Part shown: positions 34 to 35,829 of the stretch, piece after piece
How positions within the stretch are numbered: position 1 is the first letter of the stretch
Layout: each line of letters begins with the position of its first letter
Source: Basidioascus undulatus
Taxonomy: Eukaryota
Direction of reading: 5' to 3'
Assembly: GCA_000826855.1 (NCBI GenBank)
Contig: JTLS01000062.1
Coordinates: 1-35,878, forward strand
Length of the DNA stretch: 35,878 bases
The notes under the pieces: generated by a model
Seen by the model: only the letters and a program-made list of their open reading frames with translations
Told to the model about the DNA's origin: nothing
Databases searched by the model: none
Program-made: the position numbers and the translations under genes

Positions 34-361
34 GGCTGTCAACAATGGCTGTGCTGGGAGAGTGAGTGTCTAGCTTGAGTGGGGAGGTTTTAGACGCTGA
101 GTGGTGGTGGATTGGTGATAAAGGGTCCTCGAGTCCCTCATTTTGCTCGACCGCTTCCTCTATCTACGCGAGAAGCTCGGCGACGGCGCAGACGTGCGGC
201 TCACGAATGTGTTCGACCAGTCGACGGGGTCGTCCCGGTGCGTTTGGTCGTTTTTTTGGTTGTTGTCGGGGTGGAGGAGGGGGCAGGAGGGAGTTGATTT
301 GGCTGACTGGAAGGCGATGCACAGGAACGTCGCTATTGTTGTGGATCGCAAGAAGCAATAA
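34..361 (+). CDS. 3' exons of a METTL25/RRNAD1-like methyltransferase (partial, 5' end outside the window)
   Basis: Removing introns gtgagt..taaag (62-123) and gtgcgt..cacag (~238-324) gives LSTMAVLGEVLESLILLDRFLYLREKL..VRLTNVFDQSTGSSRNVAIVVDRKKQ*. This matches, from memory, the 'ESLILLDRxxYLxE...FDP..SPRN.A' C-terminus of the METTL25/RRNAD1 family. Confidence 0.7.
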
Positions 362-713
362 ATGCAGTTTGTGTCTGCCGTTGGCCATGCTGCGCCTGCG
401 GGCCCGGCTTTTTTTTTCGTCGGATGGCTCGTTTGGATCATCAATCCTTTGCCCGGTCGCCTGGTTTCCGGTATCTGACATCGACTGATCGGAAATCATT
501 CGACTCACTCGCTTTGGCGCTGGTCGCCGTCGAGCTTGTTGCATTCGCCAAGCGCACTTCGAATTCCGGGACTCGAGCGTAGATGGGCTTGGCTGATATC
601 GATTTCGGCCATTGATGAAATTGCTTGTCTAACTAACGTCCTTTCGCTGTCTCGCAACTGAAGGCAAATTTTTCATATCACCGCGCACGCCATTCGCATC
701 ACAACAGGCAGTA

Positions 714-1903: not shown

Positions 1904-2456
1904 GAGAGAGCAAGGACAAGACTCGAGAGGTGCGAGGACGGATGGGTCTGGCCGGAGTGTGATATTGTTGTTATTTTGCATGAGCAAAGGGACAGGCCAA
2001 GAAGCCGCATAGCGCGAGGCCTGTGATAGGCGACATTCAAGGGGCAGCGAGCATGCGAAGGGGAAGGGAAAGTGCCACAGCCAAGATCTATGGGGAGAGC
2101 CCGGGGAACTTTAAACAATCCCACAAGAGTGGATCTTGAGAGTGGATCTTAAGTAAATGTTTTCGTAAATTTCTACAATATTAATTGAGGAGTGGCACAA
2201 CTGGGGCGTCACAGCCGGGAGAAAGTGCGAATGGAGCGCATCCTAGAGTTAAATGCTTTGACGTTGATAACCCTGAGTATTGGAAAGTTCACCCTGTCCA
2301 AAGCAATCCCTTGCTCTTGATTAGGAATGTGCCCGACAGCCCATCAGAAGTGTTGATAGAAAAGGTGGTGTACCTGGGCTTTGGTGCTGCCCTCTTTACA
2401 TGCTCGCCAGCCCTGCTTCCGTCCCTCCCACTTGCGGGGGTTCTGCCTGCGATTCA

Positions 2457-2708
2457 CCATCTCGCGTTCTTGGAGTATCCCACGGGTAGAACTTTTTGGG
2501 TCAAATGCTAACGCAAAACGTGTTTCTGTACAAGGCATCCCACTCCTCGAGCGATCAAAGGTAGGTCTCCACGGCGATAATCAAGCTGGAATGAAAAAGG
2601 AGTTCCAGCCGCGTGCGGTGCAAGGGTCAGCAGGATGCAAGGCGGCGCGGTGGCTATTCTCCTCTGCTCTGACCGTCACCTCCTCGACCGTCGTCCCCTG
2701 GCAACAAG
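2457..2708 (+). repeat. About 250-bp dispersed repeat, copy 1 (upstream/promoter region of the F-box gene)
   Basis: Reverse complement of 32451-32702, with roughly a dozen or so differences counted by eye. Confidence 0.95.
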
Positions 2709-2749
2709 CGTCAACGCTCTCAAACTCGCTTCTCAACCCCAAACGAGAA

Positions 2750-3741
2750 ATGGCACCTCAATCGCTGGTTTCTCTGCCCCTCGAGATCCTCGAGCTGGTC
2801 CGCGACGAGCTCCCGCTGCACAGCCTCACCGCTCTCTCGCAGACCTGCGCACGGCTGAAGCAGTCTTGCGACCAGTCTCATCTCGTACGTCGCATGAAGC
2901 AATGCGGCTACGGAGCACCGCTGCTCTTCGGGCACGGTGTTGACGGCTTGATAGGGGTGCGCGCGGCGCTGGCTCAGCTTGGTCGTCCTTCATGCGAGGG
3001 AGAGGCGACATGCGAGTTCTGCAGGCAGCGCCAGTCCGGCAAGTCCCGTGGTTCCATTGCAGTCCATGTTCCATTCAACTTCCAACAGGTGTATCTCTGT
3101 CATGAGTCCGTGTGTTTCATTGGTGTTCACGGCCGTTCGCGTCGCGCGGGACAAGCTCTCGCTCAACCTGCATCCTTTACTGGAGCACAACGAGGTTGTC
3201 GTCCCTTTCGATTATACCCGGTCGGAATCGATCAAACTCGAATGCTTGCTTGACTACTACTGCAGAAACTGCGACGAATACCACGACGATACCTCCAGGC
3301 CTTCGTTGTCCTCCCTCCTTGCTCACAGGTGTCTCGCGTCCGCCTTTGCTACCGTCCCGCCCGTCAGAGAGCCCGACCTACTGCTCGGATACTTTGGCTT
3401 GGGGGTGTACTGGAGACGCACGATCGAAAACGTTATTAGAGTTACCGTACTTGACTTCTGTATCGGTCTCCCGCAGCTGTTGGTCCTTGACTTGCTTTTA
3501 TCGTCAAAGACCTTCGCTGATCTCCTACCGGTTTGCTTCATACAGCATGGCAATCCCTCTTACGTCGGGCGAGCTTTCGACTCTAAGAAGCCTCCTTAAC
3601 TTGCCTCATCTGCCGCCGGGCACGTCGCGCCGTTTGCGTGAGTGCAGGGAGGACTCCTCCGCGGGGCGGAGGACAGCTCACCAGAGTTTTGCCCTTTCAG
3701 ACGCACGAGCCATTTGGTCTAAAAGGATCTACAACGACTGA
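2750..3741 (+). CDS. F-box domain protein (middle splice junction unresolved; possibly a pseudogene)
   Basis: The N-terminus LVSLPLEILELVRDELPLHSLTALSQTCARL is a typical F-box. Downstream exons read LHPLL...AFATVPPV...TVLDFC and LMAIPL...IYND*, with GT-AG introns at ~3479-3546 and 3638-3700. I could not find a clean in-frame junction at ~3039-3150. Confidence 0.65.
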
Positions 3742-6972: not shown

Positions 6973-9034
6973 CTATCCACCTGCCCGGTCCAGCGCCCAT
7001 CCTCCGGAAGATCCGAACTGCGCTACACTCGAAGTAGGCGGTGGATGGGCCAGCCGCCGCGAGGGCGTTGAGTCGGAAGAGGAGAGCGTGAAGGGAGGGA
7101 GGAGCGCGGCCTGCGGGGTCGAACGCGAGACGCTGGGCGACTCTGCGCCATTCAGAGGCGTGGGACAGCTCCTCGGAACGAACGCTCGCTCGACAGGCTT
7201 GGGAAGAGGCGGAGGGAGGACGGCTGGCTTTGGAGGGGCTCGAGTCGGCGTGATGGGTACGCTCAGAGACGGCTCTTTTCCGGCAGCCGGGAGCGGGGGC
7301 AGCGAAACGTCGCTCTGAGGTGGGACGTCTTCCTGAAGACGAGCGGCAAGTATCTCGGCTCGTAGCGGCTCGCAGAAGAGGCGGTGTCTGTTGCCCATAG
7401 AGAGAGCTAGTTCAGCGACAAAATCACAGCTAGACCGCTGTGTTCATCGACGCGTACCTCACCCACTCTCGGGCCTGGCAGCTTTCGGAACAGTAGTAGG
7501 CGGCACCGCTACACAAGGAAAGGGTAAGTTGAGATGTCGTGCACTGGTATATTTGGAACGCTTGCCAGTTCGAGCACTGTTTCGAAGTGAACGGTCAGCA
7601 ACAGCGGAGTGAAGATGACTGCGGGTAACGGACCTTGTTAATCGTTGCAAGATCGAAGGACCGCTTCTCGCTCTCGCACTGCCACCCGCCTTCTAAGTTA
7701 GCCGTACCCGGGAGCCTTTGGTTCTGTAGCGTCTGTAACGCACGTAAGGCCATGCCCCGCAAACAAATCCTCCCCTCGCTCCAAATAGCCTGATGCTCTG
7801 AGCGTCTCCAGCGCGCCCGAGCGTCTCGTACAGCCGTCCGAGCAGCTCTCGAGTCTGTCCGGCCAGCTCGGCGTTCTGGACGAGAGAAGGAGAAAAGGAA
7901 CGCGAATGTGTTGGTAGCGAAGCCCGAAGGGAGAACGGGAGATTAACGAACGGCGATATCTTCCGCTCTGATGAGGAGCGCATGCAGCAGAGTCGCTTCG
8001 GCTTCGGGAAAGTTCCCCATCTGAAGCTATAAGGGACGAAGAGTGAGATCCCTAGTCGGGCAGCGCAGGCACTTTTTGTCCAGGTACTGACCTGAAGATA
8101 TCCAAGCTCCTGCAGCGACATGCCGATGGACGGATCAAGAGGGTGTAGCAGCCGGACTTTCATCTGCTCCACATCCCCTGGTTGAGTACTACTCAGAAGC
8201 ATGAAACTTAAAAAATGGCCTAACCTCCAGCGCAGCTTTGAGCAGCTGCTCGGCCTGTTCGAGATCCATGGCGGCCAGGCGGTTGCAGCCGTCTGCTTGC
8301 CCCGCCCGTCAGCAATAGACCGACATGCCGCGACCGCAAATGCAGAGAGGGGACATGCGCACATCGATGCAGCCTCAGCGCTTCTTTGACCTCTTCTTCG
8401 TGCGGCTTTGCGCCTTCCGGAAGCGGCAGCGGCGTCGGTACGGACTCTGGGGAGCTGTCGGGACTGGAGCGGGGGTGCGTCGAGGGAGCGTTGAGGGGGC
8501 TGGGGTCCTAAAGGAAAGGGAGTAGGAGTTTATTTTGTTACTTCCATTCTATATAGAGCGCCGGTAGGTGCAGGTCCACAGCCCTCCCCACAGACTCATC
8601 GCAGTCCGCCTCTACCTCCCATCGAGCTCCGCCAAAGAGATGGCCGTCTCGGATTTTGGAAGAAGCTCACGTGAAGGTCCGTAGAGTCTTTGAGGCGTTC
8701 TTTCCAGCTCAGGCCGCCGACCCAGCGGGGTGCACGAGCTCGCTTGTCGGGCCTGTCCACGAGACACCAGTGAAGAGTAAGTAATCTAGCTGCGACAGCT
8801 GCTCAGTTAGGGACACAAGACGATCAACTACCTGACATATTCTGCCTTGATCTGAGGCTTTGAGTAAGCTGGGGACAAACAAATCTTCTCAGTACTCCGT
8901 CGCCAGCTGCACAAGCGGCCTGGTGGCTCACCGCCCGTTGCGCCTTGCGTGATGGGCGACGCCCATGTGCTTGACCATCTCGGCGGATTGGATGAAGGCT
9001 GCTGGCTGCTGGAGTAGAACGCTGGTGTGCCCAT
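6973..9034 (-). CDS. TPR-like helical region + MYND zinc finger + Pro/Ser-rich tail
   Basis: Spliced peptides LEQAEQLLKAALE, SIGMSLQELGYLQ and GNFPEAEATLLHAL are TPR-like. FVCGAWP..WQCESEKRSFDLATINK-CSNCGAAYYCSESCQAREWVRHRLFC is a MYND finger and needs a GC-AG intron (7509-7565) and an 11-nt exon (7566-7576). The start codon is tentative. Confidence 0.75.
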
Positions 9035-9407
9035 TGCGGCTATGAGGCAGGCGATGGTGCAATTGGGATGATGGCGGTGGGAGCGGAGAAGGGACCTTGC
9101 GGGTGTGGTAAGCTGAGCAACGTGTCGGAGTCCGCCGACGACGATCAGCGGACTCGGGGCGGTCTAAGCATTCCGTCCACCGGGTATGCCTTCAACAGCC
9201 ATGGCGTTTCTTCCTAGATTTCAAGTTGGCATTGTGAAGTTTATTCACCCGCCAACAAGCATCAAAACAAGCATATTGGTCGTGAGAAGTCGTTACAGTC
9301 ATGAAACGAGAAACAGACTGGCCAAGAAGAAATGGGCACACAAATTCGTATAAGAAAGGGAACGGGAGAGTGGAAGAGTGTGGGAAGATGTAAAGCCCGG
9401 ACGTACA

Positions 9408-12400
9408 CTATGCGAGACTACGCAAATGGAGAGCTTGGTCAAGAGCATGGTAGAGCGACGGTACCCCGACTTCCGGGATGTAGCTGGCGTCCGACCCGGC
9501 AAGCTGCGCTGTGAACGCTTGCTCTTCGCTTGCGCTGCGGAAGAACGACCCGACCGTTGACCGCTGGTCCACTTGGCAAAGAGAGCGGATGCGGCTGATG
9601 GATGGGAAGAAGGTAAAGGCAGTCAGTGAAAACGCTACAAATTCAAGGGTCTGAACAGACCGCAGCGCACCTTGACAGCAGGACCTGACGCTGAGCGGAG
9701 GTAAAGGGGAGAAACGGAATAAGGAGGTCGATGAGCGGCTGAAGTGCAGGCTGCATGCCCTCAACCGTGTCATCAGCACACGACAGGAGAACTAGACTCT
9801 GAACGAAGCACTCACCCCGAAGTGTTGGGACAGCAGCCTCAACACAGCAGTCTCCAGATGCTTGGCTGTTGCGGTAGCCGATGCTGTCGAGACTTCCCCC
9901 TCGGCGCGAGTACCTTGAAGAATGGCGGTCCCGACGCGGGTCGTAACGATGAAGATAATACGGGAGACGTCGACTGGAACGCCCGTGCGACGATCCGTAT
10001 AGGCGCCTACAATCGGGTAAAATATAACAGCGGCTCAGTCCTCCACAGAGGCGAGGGGTTCAAACAGCCGTTTGGAGGTAGATGGACTAACCACTTCGAA
10101 CTCGAGAGAGGACGTCCACCAGGGTGAATGATCCATGGAGGCGCTCCGGCGGGTTTGTGAAAACGACGACTGCGCGCCGAGCGTGATGTGCCGTCAAGAA
10201 GTCGCCCAGGACCGAGCCCTACAGAAAAATAAAAAAAGAATCAGTTAAGAACAAAGAGGCAAGTTATGTAAATGAGGTTGCGCACGCGTTCATAGCCTGG
10301 CAACGGATACGGGATGCCGAAGAGTCCATGGTCTGTCAGAGGCTCGGTGTCCAGATCCAGCTGGAGCAGTCCGACACCGAGGGCGTTGGCAACTGAGTAG
10401 GTCGAGATTTCACGTTAGAAGGTTCTTGAGAAAGTGAGAGGTACAGAACTTACTGTGCGTTGAGAGTTGTCGCTTGCCATGGCCAGCCATGCCTTCGAAG
10501 GGATGACCGCGTCAGGTCGAGCTCGTACGACCAGTGCATTAGCGACAAAAACATACCGGAAAAGACAAGAACAACTGGATTAGGTCGACGTTGCTGGGAA
10601 TGTCCCGCGATAGACTCTGTGAGTGCAGCCGCCGCGTGTTCTTGACCAACGATTCCGATGGCTGCGTCGCCGAGGTTCTGGAGGCCAGCGTCCCGAAGTG
10701 CGCGCTCCAGCTGGGGGCGCAGGACGAGCTTCTGGGCCGTCTTCCACAGCAAGTACCTTCATAAAATGGGATTGGACGTCACTGTGTTTGTCCGCAAGAG
10801 GAAAGGCTGATAGCACTACGTACCGGATCTCCACAGTGAGGCGTTCCACCGAGTTACGCGCCAGAGCCGGCGTGCACCAGGCTGTCAAGATCTTTGGGGA
10901 CCGGTCGTCCACGCCTGACAGGGGCTGCGCGTACTTCTCCCATGCAGAACGCGGAATCACCCGAGGGTTCGCGTCGTACTGGAGCAGCAGCAGGACGATC
11001 GCAGCCCTATCGATGTCGTAGTCGCAAACGAGCGCGAACGCGAGCGGCGGAAGCGTTCCGGCTGGTCGCTCTATGGAAGCGCCATGCAGAAGACAAAAAC
11101 GGACGAGCTCGAGCCGTCCGGTCGCGATGGCCCAAAAGATGGGCGGAAAGCCGAAAAATGCGTCGTTGAGCAATGCGCTGCCATATGTCGCAGCCAGACG
11201 CTCGAGCTGCCTTGACACGGCGCCATCCGGGTCGGGCTGAAGAAAGAGTTGGACGAGGGCCTTGACCGGGCTGAGGGCCGAGCGCGATGTGGAGTTCGGA
11301 ATATCGGGGAGTAGGACAGCCAACGAGCTGGAGGTGGGCCGACTGCACCTCACAGCAGTCTGCGTCGCGGCCTGCCGAAAAGTTGTCGCTTAGATAAATT
11401 AATGCGAGATGGCTGAATGTGTGGACAAACCTCCGGCGAAGACCAAGCCCGACGCTGTAGAAATAAGCTGCCATGAGCAACGATTCCCTCTGCAGGTATG
11501 AGGAAGGTTTGAGAACTTGCAGTGGGAGGTCTCTGCTCGCGGACAACGAGATCTTGCCGTGCAGTGTGCCCCTCCACCTCGACTTCGCTGATTGCCATGC
11601 TCCCGAACGGAGGAAGAAGGCCTCCCGTCGAGAAAGAGTTAGGATCTCCCGGCGGCATGTGCCCTTGCGGCAGCATCTCGCGGTGAAGCCGATGCGATGT
11701 CTCCCAGATCGGGTTGAGGCCGGGGGCGACGGGTTGTGCGAAGGAATGCGCGCTTGTCGATATGCTTGACGCTGGCGAGATGAATTGCGATTGTGGTGAA
11801 GAGTGGATCTGAGCGGATCGTGCATCCAAATCTCGCAAATGAGCACAAGCACTTTCCGACGACTGACTGCTCTGGCTCACGTAGTCGCATTCTGGGCCAT
11901 ACTCGCAATGGCCGGCTATCCCAACAGCTCGGTCAAATAAAAGGTAGAGCTGGTGATGAGGAATATAGGTTACCGATCCAGTATTTGCATCTGGGTGAAT
12001 CCGTGGTCGTTAGTTGTACGTCAGATCGGCAAGCCAAGAAGAGAACACGCACACTTTCGTTCTCCACTTGGCGTGCTTGCCGGGAGGCATCGTCGGCGAG
12101 ACTGTATGATGGCTAGTACCGGGCGCGTCGTATTGGATACGAAGCGGTGCGAGAGGAGGAGGATGAACCGCGGGAGGGCGGCGTGGAGGGGTTATGGGGA
12201 GACGCGGGATTTTGGATGGTGGCTGGGTGTAATAGCCCGGCTGCGGGGGAGAGACACGAGCCATCTGCTGTGGAAGAGCCGGGGCGTGATCTGCAGAGAA
12301 TGCTTAAATCTCACCAGCCATTGTCAAGAACATGTATGAGAAGACGTACGCAGAAATGAGCAAGCCTCGCCAGACGGACAGAGGCCAGCTGGACCCGTTC

Positions 12401-12757
12401 TATCAGCATGAGCAGCGGCCTTTCCACTATCAAAGACTTTTTCAAACTCACAGCGATTCCAGAACTTGCAGACACGAGTGCGCCAGTTGCGGTCCGGCGG
12501 GTCAGATGCTTTGGATCTGTCGAACGAGTTCCGAATTAAGCATCACATTTCACGATGCGAACGTCGATCCTTCCCGCTTCACTTACTCGTGGCCCATGAT
12601 GTGCAGGAAATTGCAGGCGTCACCGTCAGGACAGGTGCTGCTGCTCTGCCAGAACCTGCAGGGGCGAGCTGTAGGAAATGTGATCGTCAGTCTTACCGTC
12701 CACAAACACGCATCATCGTAGCTCACTCCTCCAGTTGTTCAGTCTTTGAGGTTCCAT
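9408..12757 (-). CDS. Triple CCCH zinc finger + ankyrin-like + degenerate ClpB/Skd3-type AAA+ protein
   Basis: Phase-consistent exons 12727-12757, 12587-12668, 12452-12516, 12350-12388, 12053-12290, 11974-11990, 11881-11915 and 11431-11808 continue from 11371 into ORF 10580-11353. They give three CCCH fingers, an ankyrin-like region (PPIFWAIATGRLELVRFCLLHGA; PPLAFAL..IVLLLLQYDANP) and ClpB-D2-like segments (IVGQEHA, PVVLVFSGMAGHGK, LFG..PGY, YTDRRTG..VDVSRIIFIVTT, LIPFLPF). Confidence 0.8.
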
Positions 12758-13624
12758 GAGAAGATTCCGACACTCGAGAAGGCAATCAATCAATAAGATG
12801 CGGTATAGGATGATCGAGCAGCCGAGAACGAGAAGGCAAAAGCGATCGAGTAGGCAAGGGGATCTAGCGCCACAGCCTCCGAAGTGAAGCGATCCTTATG
12901 AGCGCGAGCATTCGAAGGTCGTTGTTTGAAGAAGTGGGGCAAGTTCGGTCAGCTCAAAGCTTCTGATGGGGCCAGGATACATTGAACGCGTCTGCGAACG
13001 ACGAAAAACTCGTTGGAGCCGAAGATGCATTCGCGAGATGGTGAGAGGACGAAGCGAGGAAGCGCATCAAAACGCCACGGCAGCAAGTGCAAGGTTTAAT
13101 TAAGGGGATGAGTTGTTGATTGGGCCGCGCGTAAGTCCTGTTGCACGACTCGAGGGAGGCAAGGTGAGGCACGGTGTGCGAAAGCATGTCATGGGGCACG
13201 CCGCGTTCCCAACGTTCAGCTTGAAATGCCCGAACCACGTGTTTTATCTTACCTATCTTACCGCCGGCTGCTGCGGGACTTTTCACTGAATGTGCTTAAA
13301 CGTTCAGCGATTGGCGAGCTTATCTGGTACAGCTTCAGCACAGCGAGCTTCGAGCTAGCGATGCTAGTGATGCGCTGGGCGAATCGTGAAGAGAAGTGAA
13401 ATCATGCGTAACGTTATTGCGTACACGGTATCGGGAAGAAAGAAGAAAAGTCAAGACTATGTCGCGCTGCGACTCAAAAAGACCTAACAAGGCGGAGATA
13501 AAAGACCTCAAAGTGTTCATTCTGTGCACCTCGCTTTCGATCAGACGTGCCCCTGTGACTCGCTCTCCGAACCAATCGACGCACCAAAAGCACACACCCA
13601 TGTCCGTTGGTCCTACCCGACCGG

Positions 13625-15992
13625 TCAGACCTCAACCGTCGCCACCTTCCCTCTCAAGTTCTCGATCTCCTCCTTGGCCTGGTCGTCCGCGGGCAGCTCC
13701 GGCTGGCGGTCCAGACTGGGGCGCCCAGCGCTCTCGCCTGCGGTGTGGTACCCCTCATCGTCTGACTCCTCCGTATCGGAATGAGGCGTCGCGGCTTGGC
13801 GCTGCGCAGCGGCGGCGATAGACGCGAACGAAGAAGCGCCAGACGCGTCGGACGAGCCGGCGCCGCTGCGCAGCCGTGAGGTAGCAGTGATGGCGCGGTA
13901 TGCCGAGCGCCACCTGTAGCGAGCAAAAGTGATGGTGAGAAGGGTGAAGTGTGAAGTGCGAAGCAGGATCACGATGCGTACTTGGCTCGGGAATTGAAGT
14001 TCTCGCGCAGCCCGCCACCGATGTCGTGCTCCGAGCTTGGATCGTGCTCCGTCAGCCACTGCGCGTTACTGAACTGATCAGCTTCATGGCGCGTGTCAGC
14101 ATCTCCGGCATGGTCAAGAACGGACCCTATGCTTCCAGGCCTGTTCCGCGGTCAACCGCTCCTCCGGGTCCGGCTGCAGAAGCCCGCGAACAAAGTCCTT
14201 TGCTGTACCCCGCACACCGACAGGTTAGAAAGCAGAAAGGACGTCGGGAGGAAGCGTGTTGGCCGCACCTTCCTCCGAGATGTTTTTCCAGTACTTGTCG
14301 TGGAACTCCACCTTGGCGCGCGTCGTCTCCTTGATGAGCTCCTTGATGTCCTCGGAGCGGAAGGGGGAGTATCCGCAAAGAAGAACGTCTGTCATATCGA
14401 TTTGGCATTAGTGCCAGAGCGATAACCGCTCTTCCGTCTGACATGAGCGTACAGGTGATGACGCTGGCGTGGATTCAAAGATGGTCAGCTCGAATATGTG
14501 CCAAGAGTCCCTTGAGCGCAGCCTACCCGATGGACCACATATCGACGGCCTTGCCGTGACCTTTGTTGTTCAAGATCTCGGGTGCGGCATAGCCGATCGA
14601 GCCAGCTAAGGAGTTGAGGATCTGCGACTCGCCCTCCAGGTGCTTCGCACTGCGTGTTTGCCGGTCGTCAGCGCCCTTCAAACCAGTTCTGTTCTGAGAG
14701 AGATTTCCCGACGCACATCCCGAAGTCCGCGATGACGACGTCAGCGTCTTGGGCTTTCGAGCGGTACAAGATGTTCTCGGGCCTGTAGAGGAGTTGCGGA
14801 TCAGTTCGGTGCATCAGTGTACGACGCTGTCAGAACGGACTTGAGATCCCGGTGAACGACCTCTCGCTGTGGGGGAGAAAAGGTCAGAAGGGTAGTCGCG
14901 AGAAGGCAAGTGCAACAGACGGACCGAGTGCAGATACCGAACGGCGTTGACGATCGATTGAACCACCGTCACCGCGTCCTTTTCCTGTTCTCTAAGGGCC
15001 TGTCAGCGCAGCCTCTCTCGCGTGTGAAATCGAACTTGTGGCTTACGCTGAACTTCCCTTGCTTCGTGATCCGCTCGAACAGCTCGCCACCGGTGGCTAG
15101 TTCGAACGTGAGGTAGTACTGTCCGCCAGTTCAGATCTGTCGACCAGCGTGACCAAAAGATGCGAGTGCATTCGGACAGACCTTATCCCGCGACTCGAAC
15201 CACTCATAAAACTTGACGATGTTGGGATGATCGAGGCCTCCAGGAAGGAGCGGCATGTAAGCTTCCAGAGCGCAAGGGGCAGGCGGAATCGGGCGTGAAA
15301 GCAACCTTTCAGGACATTCATCTGTTAAAAGTCCAGTTCAGCGCGTAGGTCTTGAGTTTGAACGGACCAAACAAAGCGCACCTCATCCCAGATCGCCCGC
15401 TCGTTGCCCTTGACCTAGAGCACCCCCCAAGATCAGCGCTACCCCAGTTGGCCGTCCAGAACCCAGGCCGTACCTTCTTCTTCGGAATGACCTTTACGCT
15501 TCCCTCCCTTCAGCATCTGCGCACCAGCCGACCCGTACGGACGGCTCCGACGCACCTTCATAGCGACATCCTTCGGTTCCCCCGGCGCCGTCTTCCAGGT
15601 CGCCCTCACCACCTGCCGCCAACAGCATGAGGATCCACCCCATACCAAGGATCCATGCGTGTTTCTCGCTCACCTTCCCGAACGACCCCTCGCCTAGCTA
15701 CACGCCAGCACCAGCACCCACCACCGCCACTGCATCAGCATCTCCGAGTCCAAGCACGTGATAGACGACGGCGACCGACCGTCTCGCCGAAGTGGTAGTC
15801 CTGCGTTACACGGATGCTTGAGATATGCACGGATAGAGTGAGTTAGGCATCGTCGCTCACCTTCTTCTTCTGGAAGGACTCTGGCTGCTGGAGCATGTGG
15901 CTGGAAGAGATTCACCAAGGGTTCCAATCGCTCAGCGTGTGCTCCAGCGCTGGAGACGCCCTGCACCCCACTCACTCGCGCAAAAGACCCAT
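13625..15992 (-). CDS. CMK1: Ca2+/calmodulin-dependent protein kinase (CMK1/CmkA family)
   Basis: Spliced motifs: QPESFQKKK, LGEGSFG, VAMK, LDHPNIVKFYEWFESRDK, FELATGGELFERI, HRDLKPEN, IADFG, AGSIGYAAPE, GHGKAVDMWSIG, and the regulatory segment GLRENFNSRAKWRSA. Confidence 0.93.
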
Positions 15993-21654: not shown

Positions 21655-23261
<1,607 letters not shown>

Positions 23262-28904: not shown

Positions 28905-29433
28905 TTGGGGCCGATGTTGTGGTTGGAGCAGCATTATTGAAAGTCCGTATTTTCTTGTGGATTCCTCATCAACAATACAAGCCAGATTGGTCGCCGGATT
29001 TTTGCCTAGTTGCAGTCAGCTGCGAACTTTGAAAGCCTCAAACGCCGCATTCAGCCTCGGACGACTCCATCCATCAATGAACTGTTCCGTGACTGCTATT
29101 GCTCGAAGTAATAGCCCTGATAGGATGAGGTGCGCAGCATCGGGGATCGATGTCCACTGCTTGATTTCGCGGTATTCTGCACGGTGGCAGCCGAGTGCGG
29201 TCAACGCTCACGCAACGGAACGCCGACGATCTTACCGGTGTGCAATGCTCTTCCAACGGAAATATGGTCCTTTATATAGCTGAATGTCAAGATGAAGTAT
29301 CCCAAATTGAGGTGCTGTTTTTGGCGTTAAACATGACTTCGAAGGTCATGCGCTGACCAAACAATGTCTTCTGCCTTCCCTTTTCTTGCCTTGCGCCTTT
29401 CTGGGTTGGCCACAAACCGCATTCTTTTTCGCG

Positions 29434-31626
29434 ATGGCGACCTCTACTGACAGCGCGCCGCCTCCGAAGCGGGCGCGGTTTGATCTTCCTTCCCCGCCGC
29501 CATCCGCGTCCGTTTCTCCCGATCCCCCACCCCGCCCGCGCTCCTCGACCCTCCATCGTCCTCACCCGCTCCTCATCAAGCCCTCCGGCAATGCGCTCCT
29601 CGACCCCGCCCGCGCAGCGCGTTCCAGGCGCTCCTCCCTCGGCTCGCTCGCAACGCTCTCGGACGAGCTCATCCTCGAGATGCTCGCGCTCCTCCCCGCC
29701 CCCGCGCTCTTCCGCCTGCAAGCCGTCAGCCGCGCCCTCTTCGCTTTCACGCGGCACCAGGCGCTGTGGAAGGTCCTCTACGTCGATCGTACGGAGGGGA
29801 ACATGGAGTGCTGGGATGGCGACTGGCGAAGAACGTACTGGGCCCAGTTCATGGCGCCTGCGGAGGTTGTAGAGGAGGGGCAGTTGGACGATGAGGATCT
29901 CGAGATGCCCGCAGACGGCATCACGACGCCCGACGTATTCTCCGACGTCCTTTTCCAGCCCCACCTGTGTTCTGCCCCACTTGCACACCACTTCACAGCC
30001 CCCACCGCACTCTCTAACATCGTCTCCCATCCCGCTCCCACCCTTACGCCATTCACTTTCGCATCCCTCTACGCGGCCACCTCGACACCCGTCATCCTCA
30101 CCTCCCTCATCCCCCACTGGCCATGCTTCTCGCCCTCCTCCCCTTCCTCCTCCTCCTGGAGCCTCCCCTCCCTCACGCGCCGCTTCGGAGACACCGCCTT
30201 CCGCGCCGAGGCCGTGACCGTGCCGATGCGCGTGTACGAGCGTTACTGCGCGAGTGTCGAGCGCGCGCGCGGTGCGATCGACGAGAGCCCGCTTTACCTC
30301 TTCGATTCGGAGTTTGTCTACCGCTCGGGCGGGGAGATGGGGCGCGAGTACGAGGTCCCGCCCATCTTTGGGGAGGACCTCTTCGGCGTGATGGGCAATG
30401 AGCGGCCGGACTACAGATGGCTAGTGCGTCCGTTTCTCGTTTCCTGTTTCCGGCGACAGTTCTGCTCACAGTCCGACGCAGATTGTAGGCCCCTCCCGCG
30501 CTGGCTCCTCATGGCAGTGCGTTTCACCCTGTTTCCATCGTCTTCAAAACCAGCCTTCTGAAAACCGCTCTTTTCACCCATTCACAGCAAGGACCCCAAC
30601 TCTACCTCCGCCTGGAACGCAGTGATCACCGGCGCCAAGGGCTGGATCCTCTTCCCGCCCGATATCCCCCCTCCAGGCGTATTCGTGTCCGACGGTGCGT
30701 GGGGCCTGTTCTGACTCTTGCCCAAACCCCGAACCTCGAGCCTTCGTGGATCTATCAGTAATGTGTTCTCATTCTCAACCACACTTGCAGACGAATCCGA
30801 AGTGACCTCCCCGCTTTCCATTGCCGGTGCGACCCCTTTCCCTCTTTCGCCCTCCCATCCCCAGTCTTTTCATTGATGTTGAGCATCCACACCTTCAGAA
30901 TGGTTTAACTCTTACTACACCGCCGCCCTAGGGCAGTACGGACCGCGCGCCAAGGACCCCAAGACGCGCGGGAGGATGCTGCAGGGCGTGTGTCGGGAGG
31001 GAGAGGTCATGTACATGTGCGTTGCCGTTCCGTTTCGCTTTATTTCTTGTGCACTCTCTCCCGGATGTACTGATGCGGTAAGGTGTGGGCAACAGTCCAG
31101 CGGGATGGTGGCACCTCGTCTTGAACCTCTCGCCATGCGTCGCAGTAACGCAAAACTTCGTATCCCGCTCCGAAGTCCGTCGTCCCCGCCCTCTCTCTCC
31201 CACATCCCGCCGCAAACCTCGCACACTCACCCTCTCAACGTCCCGCAGCTCCCTCAAGTCCTCAACTTCCTGCAGCACAAGCCGGACCAAATCAGCGGCT
31301 TCAAGCTGCGCCCCGCGTCCACGTCCTCCGCGCAGGACGCCGACGAGGCGTGCGTCAACTCGGCGGTGTATGAAAAGTTCTGCGCGGGGCTCGAGCGCGA
31401 TGTGCCGGGCGCGCTCGAGGAGGCGCGGGGGAAGATGAGCGCGAGGGAGAGGGAGAGGTCGAAGAGGGAGGGGAAGAAGGACCTGAAGAAGGACGGGAAG
31501 GGGTGGTGGGACAGGTTGAAGGAGGAGGGAGAGAGGGAAGCGGCGGGAGGGGGAGGCGGGTTCAGCTTTGGGTTCGCGATTGGGGAGGACGAGGAGGAGG
31601 AGGGGGACGGGGCGGGGGAGGCATAG
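29434..31626 (+). CDS. F-box + JmjC domain 2-oxoglutarate/Fe(II) oxygenase (JMJD6-like)
   Basis: HPLLIKPSGNAL and F-box LSDELILEML..LWK; PLYLFD; RPDYRWLIVGP.RAGSSWHKDPNSTSAWNA; PAGWWHLVLNL..AVTQNFV. The HxD...H metal triad is intact. Confidence 0.9.
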
Positions 31627-33111: not shown

Positions 33112-35829
33112 TTACTCCTGGATGGACAGCGCCGCAACAGCGTCCTGCACGCCCGTGCTCACGTCCGCGAGCTCGCCGGTCTCGGTCTGCGCAATCACTG
33201 CAGAACATACGTTATCAGCACGGAGAAAGTGGACGATGTCAACGCGTATCCTCGACATACGCTTGGTGACCTTGCCGATGGCGATCGTCTTCCCTTCGTC
33301 GCGGAGCGTGAACCGGCCGAGCTGCGGGTAGTCGGCGAAGCGCTCCATGCAGATCGCGCCCGTCGCCTCGATGAGCGCGACAATCTTCTGGCCTGTGTGA
33401 TTGATACCGCAGCGACTCAGCTTCACAAAATCGCCTCCTATCTGCCACGACTCTTCCGATACGCACCCTTCTTGGCGAACTGGGGCGGCTTCTTCGACTT
33501 GCGGCCAGTCTTCTTGTCGTAGTAGTGCAGCAGAGCCTGTCATTGCGCCCACAAATGCAAAGTCAGCGAATCGCGGATGGCCATCACCTCTTTCCTCACT
33601 CCCGACTTACGGAAAGCGTGATCTCCTCCGCAGCAGTGTGGATGTGCATGACGGCGCTGTAGCCCGCGCAGATGATGTTCTTGTGGTCGAGGATAGCGAG
33701 CTGTGCCTCGAACTGGCGGACAGTCTTGACGGGCTTGGATGGGTCCGTGAGAACGAAACCGGGCTGGACGGCCTCGTCCTCGACGCCACGGAGGCGGATC
33801 CGGACGTTGTCACCACAGAGCGCGACCTGCGTCTCCTCCTCCATCTCGTTCTCGATCGCTTGCACTTCGACGATTTCCTGAACGCGCGCCGATCGAGACC
33901 AGCGGTAAGCTGCGTTGGACTGCGAAGCACCAATATTAGACATACCTTGTTGGGCATGAGCATGAGCTTGTCGTTGACCCGGAGCTTGCCGGACTCGATC
34001 TTGCCGACGACGATGGTGCCCATGTCCTTGTACTTGTCCGAGATGGGCATCATGAGCGGAGCCGATATCTTGCGATCGACGATGGGCATCGCGTCGAGGA
34101 AGGGGATGAGGGCGGGACCGCTGCACGGAACCCGACGCACGGCGTTAGGACACCAAAAAGTGTAAAGGCCCAGAGTAGAAAGGGGAGAACAGGGAAAGGA
34201 GCTCAATACGCACTCATACCACGGTGCGTCCGCCTTCTTAACGACCTCCTTGAGGTTTGCGCCGGTGTAGGCCGAGACGGGGATGTAGGTGATGTCCGTC
34301 TTCGGGTTAAAGCCGGTGCCGCGCAGGAAGGGCGTAAGCTTGTCGTGGATCTCGTCGTACCTGGCGCCACGTAGGACTCCTCGTTAGCGGTTGCCGCTGG
34401 CTGCGATAGAGAATATAAGGTGTACTCACCGAGCCTTGTCCCAGCGGACGGTCGGGTCGTCCATCTTGTTGACAACGACGATGAGCTTCTGCACACCCGC
34501 CGTCTTGACAAGCATCGCGTGCTCGCGCGTCTGGCCGCCCTTCTCGAAACCGGTCTCGAACTCCCCCTTGCGCGCGGAGATGACCTGCACAGCGCCCGCA
34601 CGTCGACGTAAGCTCGTTGTTCCCGACTCCGCCTGAAAACAATGGGAAGCGTGACATACCAGCACGGCAACGTCCGCCTGCGCCGCACCCGAGATCATGC
34701 TCGGCACGAACGTCTTGTGACCGGGAGCGTCGAGGATGGTGTACCGCCGTGTGGAAGTCTCGAAGTACGCACGACCGACTTCGACCGTCTTGCCCTGTTG
34801 GACCCCACATGCTCAACTTGTCAGACCCCGCTTGGAGCAAATGACAGATCGGAAATGACACGGACCTTGGCGCGCTCCTGCGGCGTCGAGTCGAGCGCCC
34901 AGGAGAGGTACCAGCTCTCACGACCGGCCTCCTTGGCATCGCGCTCGTACTTCTCCATCGTACGCTTGTCGACCATGCCGGTCAGGTAGAGCAGCTGGCC
35001 ACCCATGGTCCTGCAGTGCCATAAAACAAGTTCAGCCAAGTTTTCCAGCTGAACGATCGCCGTTGATGCCGCAGAAGAGGCCAAATGTAAATGGAGGGAG
35101 ACGCACGACTTGCCGGCATCGACGTGCCCGCAGAAGACGATGTTGAGGTGCTGCTTGGCTGGCGGGATCGGAACCGAGACGTGTGAGCAGGTAGCGAGGT
35201 CGAAGGGGAAAGGGGGCGAGACGCACGAACTGCACCATCCGTGCCGAAGAGGTCCTTGAGCGTCTCTTCGTCCGCAGCGGCAGACGTCTCGCGGAGGATT
35301 TGGTCCTAGATCCGACCATTCCGCCGTCAGCCTCTCCCGCCCTTCGCAGTGTTATCGCAGACAGCCAAGTAAAGTCAGCACTCACCGCCTTAGCCTGAGC
35401 AGCCGCGATGGCGGCCTTGCTCGGGGCAGCGGCAGACTTGGAAGCGCCCTTGGAAGCAGAGGCGACAGGGGCGGCAGCAGCGGGTGCGGCGGCCTTGGGA
35501 GCAGCAGGAGCGGCAGCGGGGGCAGGGGTAGACGGCTTGGACGGAGCGGAGGAAGAGGAAGCGGGGGTGGCAGGGACGTCTGCCTTTTTGGGGGCGGGAG
35601 AAGTGGGAGCAGGGGAGGCGGTGGGCTTGGGCTTGGAGCCGCCGATAGAGAGGGAGATGGTGGCGGGCTTGACGTTCTCCTCCTTTGGCGAGGCCGGAGC
35701 GGGAGCGGGGGCGGGAAGCTTGGAGCCACCGATTGAGAGCGAGATAGTCGGGGGCGGAGCGGGAGCGGGGGCAGCGTCGTCGACGGGCTTGCGCTCGAAG
35801 GGCTGAGCGGGAGCGGCGGGTGCGGAGGG
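33112..35829 (-). CDS. SUP35: Eukaryotic release factor 3 GTPase (partial; 5' end beyond the window)
   Basis: Motifs [108 protein letters not shown]. Pro/Ala-rich M region. The window ends inside an intron. Confidence 0.96.

Follow-up and report, generated by a model that had tools for sequence, protein, structure and literature searches.

When the residues on which an enzyme depends for its chemistry have been lost and the reading frame is still open, it may be asked whether the gene has been kept for some other purpose or is on its way to being lost. This question is raised by a gene predicted on the minus strand of contig JTLS01000062.1 from Basidioascus undulatus, of which we analyzed positions 1 to 35,878 (35,878 nucleotides, hereafter the window). 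A preliminary description made from the sequence had placed here an AAA+ module of the type found in the second nucleotide-binding domain (NBD2) of ClpB, behind an ankyrin-like module, and had proposed that it is a selected pseudo-ATPase rather than a pseudogene. Our analysis leads us to conclude that the gene probably does encode a pseudo-ATPase, which belongs, though highly diverged, to a fungal family combining an ankyrin-like module with a ClpB-NBD2 module and which has probably been kept as an ATP-independent RNA-protein adaptor.

The gene model was built by reading the minus strand of positions 8500-13700, and starts at an ATG at 12757. Its introns are 58-85 nucleotides long, all 15 of them start with GT and end with AG, and a CTRAY branch-like motif is found in 8 of the 15. 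Joining the exons gives a frame of 787 amino acids that is not interrupted by any stop, in agreement with the earlier statement that all splice sites are kept and stops are absent. The GC content is 0.608 in the exons and 0.475 in the introns. In order, the predicted product contains three CCCH zinc fingers, Pro/Ser-rich linkers, the ankyrin-like module and the AAA+ module.

To place this product, Pfam and PDB were given single exons, while full-length comparisons of the spliced protein were run locally against retrieved relatives. With single exons, Pfam Ank_3 matched the ankyrin exon just below its cutoff (E 2.5e-4), Pfam AAA_2 reached only E 0.042, and the PDB search returned only chance-level Lon matches (E ~0.8). 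When the 182-residue ankyrin exon was compared by HMMER with 1.84 billion representatives, 966 matches were obtained, the best 150 of which were generic ankyrin proteins except for P0128, the only AAA-bearing protein among those 150, which aligns over both window modules. P0128, used as a query in turn, led to 85 fungal proteins in which both modules are found (P0128 and P0151-P0234), and bacterial ClpB, ClpC and ClpA ranked below them. The named members are all Pezizomycotina, for example Ramalina, Pycnora, Fusarium, Venturia and Penicillium, and members of the family themselves match Pfam AAA_2 (PF07724) at 1e-15, as well as ClpB_D2-small. Some 30 of the 85 are incomplete gene calls, broken off shortly after Walker B or otherwise without the aligned columns of the C-terminal motifs; column counts given below use 54 full-length members (the 53 used for the profile and tree, plus P0390), with the retrieved set aligned by MAFFT in fast mode.

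Against a profile of 41 family N-modules, the ankyrin-like module of the window protein scored 72.8 bits (E 1.2e-24), and against a profile of the 53 full-length fungal relatives its AAA module scored 128.6 bits (E 1.6e-41), the match covering model positions 2-313 with few gaps. A phmmer comparison of the window protein with P0168 gave 104 bits. Because both module profiles match, the window gene is by homology a true full-length member of this family, and the earlier placement of a ClpB NBD2-type AAA+ module, which falls in the HCLR clade, behind an ankyrin-like one is borne out by both. An Atlas search with the ankyrin exon returned only generic bacterial ankyrin clusters, and a second family member was not found in the window. 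Basidiomycota clusters lying near the family in the Atlas (87 and 58 members) are a lead only. One member, P0180, has instead a Clr5 domain at its N-terminus. Two other identities were considered and rejected: an ordinary active ClpB, Hsp78 or Hsp104 orthologue is ruled out by the single NBD, the ankyrin module and the dead motifs, and a Torsin-type protein by the fact that family members give just weak matches to Pfam Torsin.

Comparison with the 54 full-length members indicates which parts of the ATPase machinery have changed. The P-loop backbone is intact, in that the Walker A Gly, Gly, Gly and Lys found in 52, 54, 54 and 54 members respectively are all kept in the window protein. The Thr that is present in 54 of 54 members is Arg in the window protein, and the residue after it has changed from Glu to Gln. 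At Walker B, where the family reads hhhh-D-E-F-E-K, the profile alignment places V-V-F-T-N-P-P-E-R, with Asn at the Asp column and Pro at the Glu column (both 54/54 in the family). The sensor-1 Asn, again present in all 54, is Arg. The arginine finger before IPFLPF, which is G-R in the family (Arg in 52 of 54), reads P-L and is therefore Leu, and the sensor-2 motif G-A-R-S-L (Arg in 51, the other three being gaps) reads G-V-P-S-L, with Pro for Arg. The pore-loop column, aromatic in 52 of 54 members (43 Tyr, 8 Phe and 1 Trp), is occupied by Leu, with Tyr residues two positions before and three after it. A cruder alignment of all 85 members gave a similar picture of the family, with K-T kept in 85/85 and D-E in 84/85, P0233 alone departing at the Walker B Asp. 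The replacements thus go beyond chance variation, and the window protein is alone in having the whole set of them.

These comparisons sustain each motif change named in the preliminary description: the P-loop Arg in place of Thr/Ser, in what proves to be a micro-exon at 10492..10454; the altered Walker B, which had been put at about 10145-10180 and lies at 10179..10144; the sensor-1 strand IIFIVTTR (9959..9936); and the replacement of the C-terminal GAR-type motif by EVGVPSL (9473..9453). The list was incomplete, since the losses at the arginine finger and pore loop had been overlooked, and the span of 9930-10575 assigned to the changes covers Walker A to sensor-1 while the arginine-finger (9703-9818) and sensor-2 (9453-9473) changes fall outside it. 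Of the scaffold motifs that were said to be kept, IVGQEHA (10653..10633), YTDRR (10001..9987) and LIPFLPF (within 9818..9703) are present in the spliced model, but in the pore loop only the flanking LFG and G-S remain. The IxGQ that is a feature of the clade ahead of the P-loop is also kept.

Of the three properties that make a pseudoenzyme, two, a homologous fold and the loss of catalytic residues, are present in the predicted product; the third, maintenance of the gene by selection, is taken up below. Since five hydrolysis elements are gone, the protein would be unable to hydrolyze ATP, and since the pore-loop aromatic is gone as well, it would be unable to thread polypeptides. In human Skd3, the single mutants K387A (Walker A) and E455Q (Walker B) are described as having neither ATPase nor disaggregase activity, and Y430A, in the pore loop, as impaired (PMC7343390). 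Nucleotide binding without hydrolysis could persist, because the P-loop glycines and lysine are fully kept. This raises the alternative that the protein, though atypical, still works as a nucleotide switch or nucleoside triphosphatase, in which the P-loop binds nucleotide and either other residues have taken over catalysis or binding has become independent of Mg. Consistent with such a role are the complete G-x-x-G-x-G-K and IxGQ and a Glu left in P-P-E-R, three residues beyond the missing Walker B pair; this Glu or the new arginines would be candidates for replacement residues. We nevertheless regard it as improbable: five catalytic elements have been lost together, including the arginines that act in trans and in cis and the Mg-ligand Thr, a proline now occupies the column of the catalytic Glu, and in Skd3 single substitutions in either Walker motif suffice to kill the enzyme (PMC7343390).

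A degenerate set of motifs could also be produced by choosing the wrong exons, the true mRNA being canonical. Evidence on this point comes from contigs of X3, a sequencing run that shares its sample with one of the genomic assemblies. X3 contigs are spliced exactly at 4 of the 15 predicted introns (9751-9815, 10007-10091, 10219-10285 and 11809-11880, all GT..AG). Because they are spliced at GT-AG introns, we take X3 to be transcript-derived, and because they join exons at these four introns the gene is transcribed and spliced; X3 is the sole evidence of its expression. Three of the confirmed junctions lie in the AAA module, where they flank the Walker B and sensor-1 exons and precede the arginine-finger exon, and so fix the frame of all three exons. 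A further junction into the Walker A exon, 10392|10454, may exist as well, as it fits the depth of bins 10353-10586. Positions 10587-10937, 11289-11522 and 12225-12800 have no X3 cover, and no inference is drawn from these gaps.

It is true that the gene model is a prediction, and that one junction upstream of the AAA module is contradicted by an X3 contig (see below). However, Walker B, sensor-1 and sensor-2 each lie within a single exon, two genomic assemblies are letter-identical to the window at this locus, and positions 9300-12800, read in all three frames of the minus strand, contain neither GxxGxGK[ST] nor hhhhD[DE], the only approximations being two stray GK[ST] tripeptides, both off-frame. 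As the motifs are absent from every minus-strand frame, alternative splicing at this locus cannot restore GKT or DE, an outcome that the preliminary description had named as one that would overturn its proposal. An artefact of the gene model is accordingly very improbable as the source of the degenerate motifs.

The N-terminal part of the product carries the three zinc fingers, the first of which matches Pfam zf-CCCH (PF00642) at 31.0 bits (cutoff 20.5; E 2.2e-7). All 12 of the zinc-ligand residues expected of three predicted fingers are present, and the fingers have a common lead-in, W-R-T-[RK]-x-C-[RK]-[FY]-W, which in finger 3 reads W-R-T-K-x-C-K-Y-W. Finger 3 depends on a predicted micro-exon of 17 nucleotides, which we consider real because the finger reconstructed with it closely matches fingers 1 and 2. 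In the sole X3 contig that crosses exons 5-8 this micro-exon (11990..11974) is skipped, position 12055 being joined straight to 11915 (region 11916-12054) from a donor 2 nucleotides upstream of the predicted one, and for this reason a product in which zinc fingers are joined to the ankyrin-AAA part is a prediction only. The skipping may represent a splicing switch between a product with zinc fingers only and the full fusion. Among the family, a CCCH-like finger pattern was found in P0390 and its fragment P0207 alone (85 members searched, plus P0390). P0390, a 603-residue protein of Loxospora ochrophaea, combines an N-terminal CCCH-like finger and an ankyrin-like module with fully intact ATPase motifs, which suggests that fusions of zinc fingers to the ankyrin-AAA module occur with active enzymes too.

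Whether the gene is maintained was approached by asking how an unconstrained sequence would behave. We ran 2000 simulations of neutral substitution on the coding sequence, a simple design that starts from today's sequence and ignores insertions and deletions. The median number of substitutions up to the first stop was 23 (0.01 per site), whereas a change of all six catalytic codons took a median of 1.34 substitutions per site, and in 0 of the 2000 runs did the frame stay open until all six had changed. Since no neutral run stayed open for so long, the motif losses would have arisen while the frame was being maintained. The losses are also concentrated at catalytic positions: among 50 columns that are at least 90% conserved in the family, 6 of 6 catalytic columns have changed compared with 18 of 44 others (Fisher p = 0.0085). 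Together, the outcome of the simulation, the uninterrupted frame and the splicing seen in the transcripts suggest that the gene has been maintained, to which the contrast in GC content between exons and introns also contributes. The earlier proposal of a selected pseudo-ATPase rather than a pseudogene is supported in part: the gene behaves as one that is maintained, but the dN/dS comparison (non-synonymous to synonymous substitution rates) that went with the proposal forms no part of this outcome, and the suggested role as a scaffold, a decoy or a regulatory subunit of a putative active paralogue is hypothetical.

Several observations weigh against this conclusion. Orthologues were not found in the word-index search, in the best 150 of the 966 HMMER matches or in the metagenome scans. 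The word-index search, made with a 68-residue exon ('longer' lengths), gave 505 candidates, none of them at E <= 0.001; a metagenome scan with the ankyrin exon gave 313 pattern matches, none of which was confirmed; and a second scan, with the 66-residue exon containing IVGQ, gave 2 loci only, both judged non-orthologous. With no orthologue found, the case for purifying selection rests on frame integrity and the simple simulation described above, not on dN/dS. The expression evidence is shallow, with X3 depth at 2-4 and 20 of 30 bins covered over 9300-12800, and the run is listed as 'DNA?', its library kind not being on record. Skipping of the micro-exon shifts the frame, which with the predicted acceptor at 11371 leads to a stop at codon 296, before the ankyrin-like module; whether the observed mRNA yields the AAA module consequently hangs on the exon 8/9 junction, which has no transcript cover. 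Lastly, the window protein keeps only 26 of the 50 highly conserved columns (52%; members keep 94% on average and 66% at minimum), and part of the loss may reflect general divergence in a distant and poorly sampled lineage. As for the two loci from the second metagenome scan (L001 6001-6102 and L002 2139-2273), they are 44% identical over ~33 residues and are probably ordinary Clp-type ATPases of other organisms.

Divergence is indeed a marked feature of this protein. Its mean identity to members is 24%, compared with 42% among the members, making it the most diverged sequence of the set, and in a FastTree phylogeny, for which six bacterial NBD2 sequences served as the root, it branches off as the sister of the 53 members together and sits on the longest stem (2.17, the mean being 1.83). 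The divergence is unevenly distributed. The ratio of AAA-module to N-module conservation is 1.44 +/- 0.24 over 820 member pairs; for the window protein it is 1.04, a value reached or undercut by 2.7% of the member pairs. For the N-module, identity is 23.8% for the window protein and 30.2% among members, and for the AAA module 24.2% and 42.2%. As judged from these alignments, the ATPase no longer shows its normal extra constraint, whereas conservation of the ankyrin-like module is close to normal, and both targeted loss and general divergence have occurred, the loss not being uniform. The phylogenetic position of the source organism bears on this. A LYS12-type homoisocitrate dehydrogenase exon elsewhere in the window (Pfam Iso_dh; 22343-23107, minus strand) has best database matches that are just 57-59% identical, its best named relatives being from Wallemia and other Basidiomycota, chytrids and Mucoromycota. 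Matches of no more than 59% indicate that the protein collection contains nothing closely related to the source organism, and together with a high intron density these relatives suggest a poorly sampled fungus, probably a basidiomycete; missing orthologues are therefore expected, and the Pezizomycotina members are distant in part for phylogenetic reasons.

These data allow the opposite interpretation to be weighed, namely that this is a young or partly disabled gene heading for loss, transcribed but with its ankyrin-AAA part untranslated, and that the motif losses are relics of relaxed constraint. The premature stop in the skipped isoform, the lack of a detected orthologue and the disappearance of the extra conservation of the AAA module would all follow from it. 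Yet the 787-codon frame and all 30 splice dinucleotides are intact despite divergence far beyond the ~0.01 substitutions per site at which a neutral sequence meets its first stop, the family profile still matches the whole AAA domain, and conservation of the N-module is almost normal. The contigs at the micro-exon demonstrate the presence of one isoform and not the absence of others, and alternative acceptors restore the frame: if the skipped isoform uses the next AG (exon start 11342), it reaches the same final stop as a product of 771 amino acids. Codon-usage scores of the three exon 8 frames (-2.5, -12.9 and -8.0) are too weak for choosing between these isoforms. Given the sampling of the lineage, we consider a gene in decay unlikely, and a maintained pseudo-ATPase remains the reading we favor.

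If the gene is indeed kept as a pseudo-ATPase, a binding role would be the reason for its retention, with the ankyrin-like module and the dead AAA fold offering a platform for contacts with other proteins. The three N-terminal CCCH fingers of the predicted full-length product, the first two of them in tandem, would bind RNA. Should the protein co-assemble with active family members, it would be expected to silence the neighboring active site, because it could not supply an arginine finger to the adjoining site of a mixed ring; it would thus act as an inhibitory or targeting subunit and not as an activator. A more elaborate scheme, to which we attach little confidence, is that of an RNA-guided, ATP-independent regulator derived from a Skd3-like protein. 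The fingers would bring RNAs or ribonucleoprotein granules to the ankyrin and dead-NBD platform, which would co-assemble with rings of active ankyrin-NBD2 paralogues and locally silence or target them, and inclusion of the micro-exon would switch the fusion on or off. As a corollary, the Skd3-type architecture of ankyrin and NBD2 modules would extend beyond Holozoa and be widespread in fungi, whether ancestral or convergent.

If true, the proposed role would make this protein a natural separation-of-function variant, showing what an ankyrin and NBD scaffold does without energy. Dead AAA+ modules are known within larger machines, from which a stand-alone ClpB/Skd3-type protein with its sole module dead would differ. 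With its predicted fusion to tandem CCCH fingers, the protein may have a role linked to RNA, none having been described for the clade in the literature searched. The analysis also brings out a large unnamed fungal family with ankyrin-like and NBD2 modules whose nearest solved relative is human CLPB, an architecture that the accounts cited here describe as holozoan only (PMC4339202, PMC7343390). Disaggregase research would thereby gain a set of fungal comparators with apparently intact motifs and one candidate natural dead variant. The positions of the features discussed are collected in Table 1.

Table 1. Predicted gene and features of its product in the window.
Feature	Position	Strand	Residues	Structure	Basis or remark
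Whole predicted gene	9408..12757	(-)	787 codons + stop (9410..9408)	16 exons, 15 GT-AG introns	Own splice model
CCCH zinc finger 1 (C-x8-C-x5-C-x3-H)	12601..12660	(-)	14-33	Single exon	Pfam zf-CCCH and pattern
CCCH zinc finger 2	12289..12470	(-)	54-73	Two introns inside	Pattern C-x8-C-x5-C-x3-H only
CCCH zinc finger 3	11803..11989	(-)	153-171	Three introns inside	Pattern only; needs 17-nucleotide micro-exon
Predicted 17-nucleotide micro-exon, first Cys of finger 3	11974..11990	(-)			Splice prediction
Ankyrin-like N-module	10838..11266	(-)	~331-473		Family profile; Pfam Ank_3
AAA+ module (ClpB-NBD2 / Skd3-like large and small subdomains)	9411..10756	(-)	~478-787	Exons 10-16	
Walker A, G-M-A-G-H-G-K-R	10470..10557	(-)	545-552	Intron 10493..10556 inside; micro-exon 10492..10454	
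Pore-loop region	10213..10324	(-)		Intron 10219..10285 inside	Intron confirmed by transcript contig
Walker B region, RRAVVVFTNPPE	10144..10179	(-)		Within one exon	Profile alignment
Sensor-1 strand, IIFIVTTR	9936..9959	(-)		Within one exon	Profile alignment
Arginine-finger region and P-F-x-P-F	9703..9818	(-)		Intron 9751..9815 inside	Intron confirmed by transcript contig
Sensor-2, EVGVPSL	9453..9473	(-)		Within one exon	

Elsewhere in the window, long open frames at 2360-3253 and 29311-30561 on the plus strand give weak F-box-like matches (21.7 and 19.6 bits), both below the Pfam cutoff. An open frame at 33607-34383 on the minus strand weakly matches domain 2 of elongation factor Tu (23.9 bits, also below cutoff) and is probably an exon of a translational GTPase.

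How does this protein compare with known systems in which an AAA+ fold has been kept for purposes other than catalysis? Literature searches for the combination of CCCH, ankyrin and ClpB modules gave nothing relevant by title or abstract, and none was found for catalytically inactive ClpB-type AAA+ pseudoenzymes. Degenerate AAA+ rings are well known in active machines, such as Pex1/Pex6 D1, NSF D2 and clamp-loader subunits, in which the hydrolysis motifs have been lost and the fold kept for assembly. Those are domains or subunits of known hetero-oligomers, whereas the window protein is stand-alone, with a single dead AAA module and no known partner. LAP1 and LULL1 themselves adopt an AAA+-like fold. 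They resemble the window protein as proposed here in being catalytically inactive partners of an active AAA+ ATPase, Torsin, on which they act by protein-protein contact (PMC7175109). Torsin is described as related to Clp/Hsp100, and LAP1 and LULL1 activate it by donating an arginine (PMC7175109). The window protein could not act in this way, because its arginine finger is lost, and it has no sequence relationship to either of them.

A second parallel is offered by the plant SMXL/D53 proteins, 'atypical Clp-ATPases' of the ClpB family that have been repurposed for a regulatory, non-chaperone role, described as that of transcriptional co-repressors (PMC9133912). They are specific to land plants and have neither a CCCH nor an ankyrin module.

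In domain order, the window protein is like human CLPB/Skd3 (ANKCLP), in which a single AAA+ module of the ClpB-NBD2 type and a D2-small domain stand behind an ankyrin-type module. The fungal family also has its best solved match in Skd3 (7ttr_A, matched by P0168 at E 6.2e-18, compared with 2.1e-13 for bacterial ClpB NBD2), and arthropod CLPB clusters lie near P0390 in the Atlas, which is a lead only. The link between the fungal family and Skd3 comes from this best PDB match of one member together with the Atlas lead, and could reflect either orthology or convergence. Skd3 is described as having arisen in the stem-holozoan lineage (PMC4339202) and as an active ATPase and disaggregase (PMC7343390). 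It is mitochondrial, whereas the window protein is fungal, is without the catalytic residues and pore-loop aromatic, and has a zinc finger and not a targeting peptide at its N-terminus. The fungal family itself, represented by P0168 (Ramalina farinacea), P0153 (Pycnora praestabilis), P0177 (Fusarium kuroshium) and P0390, is homologous to the window protein end to end in both modules. All 54 full-length members keep the catalytic set, while the window protein branches outside the 53 members of the tree and is set apart by its three fingers and long Pro/Ser-rich linkers.

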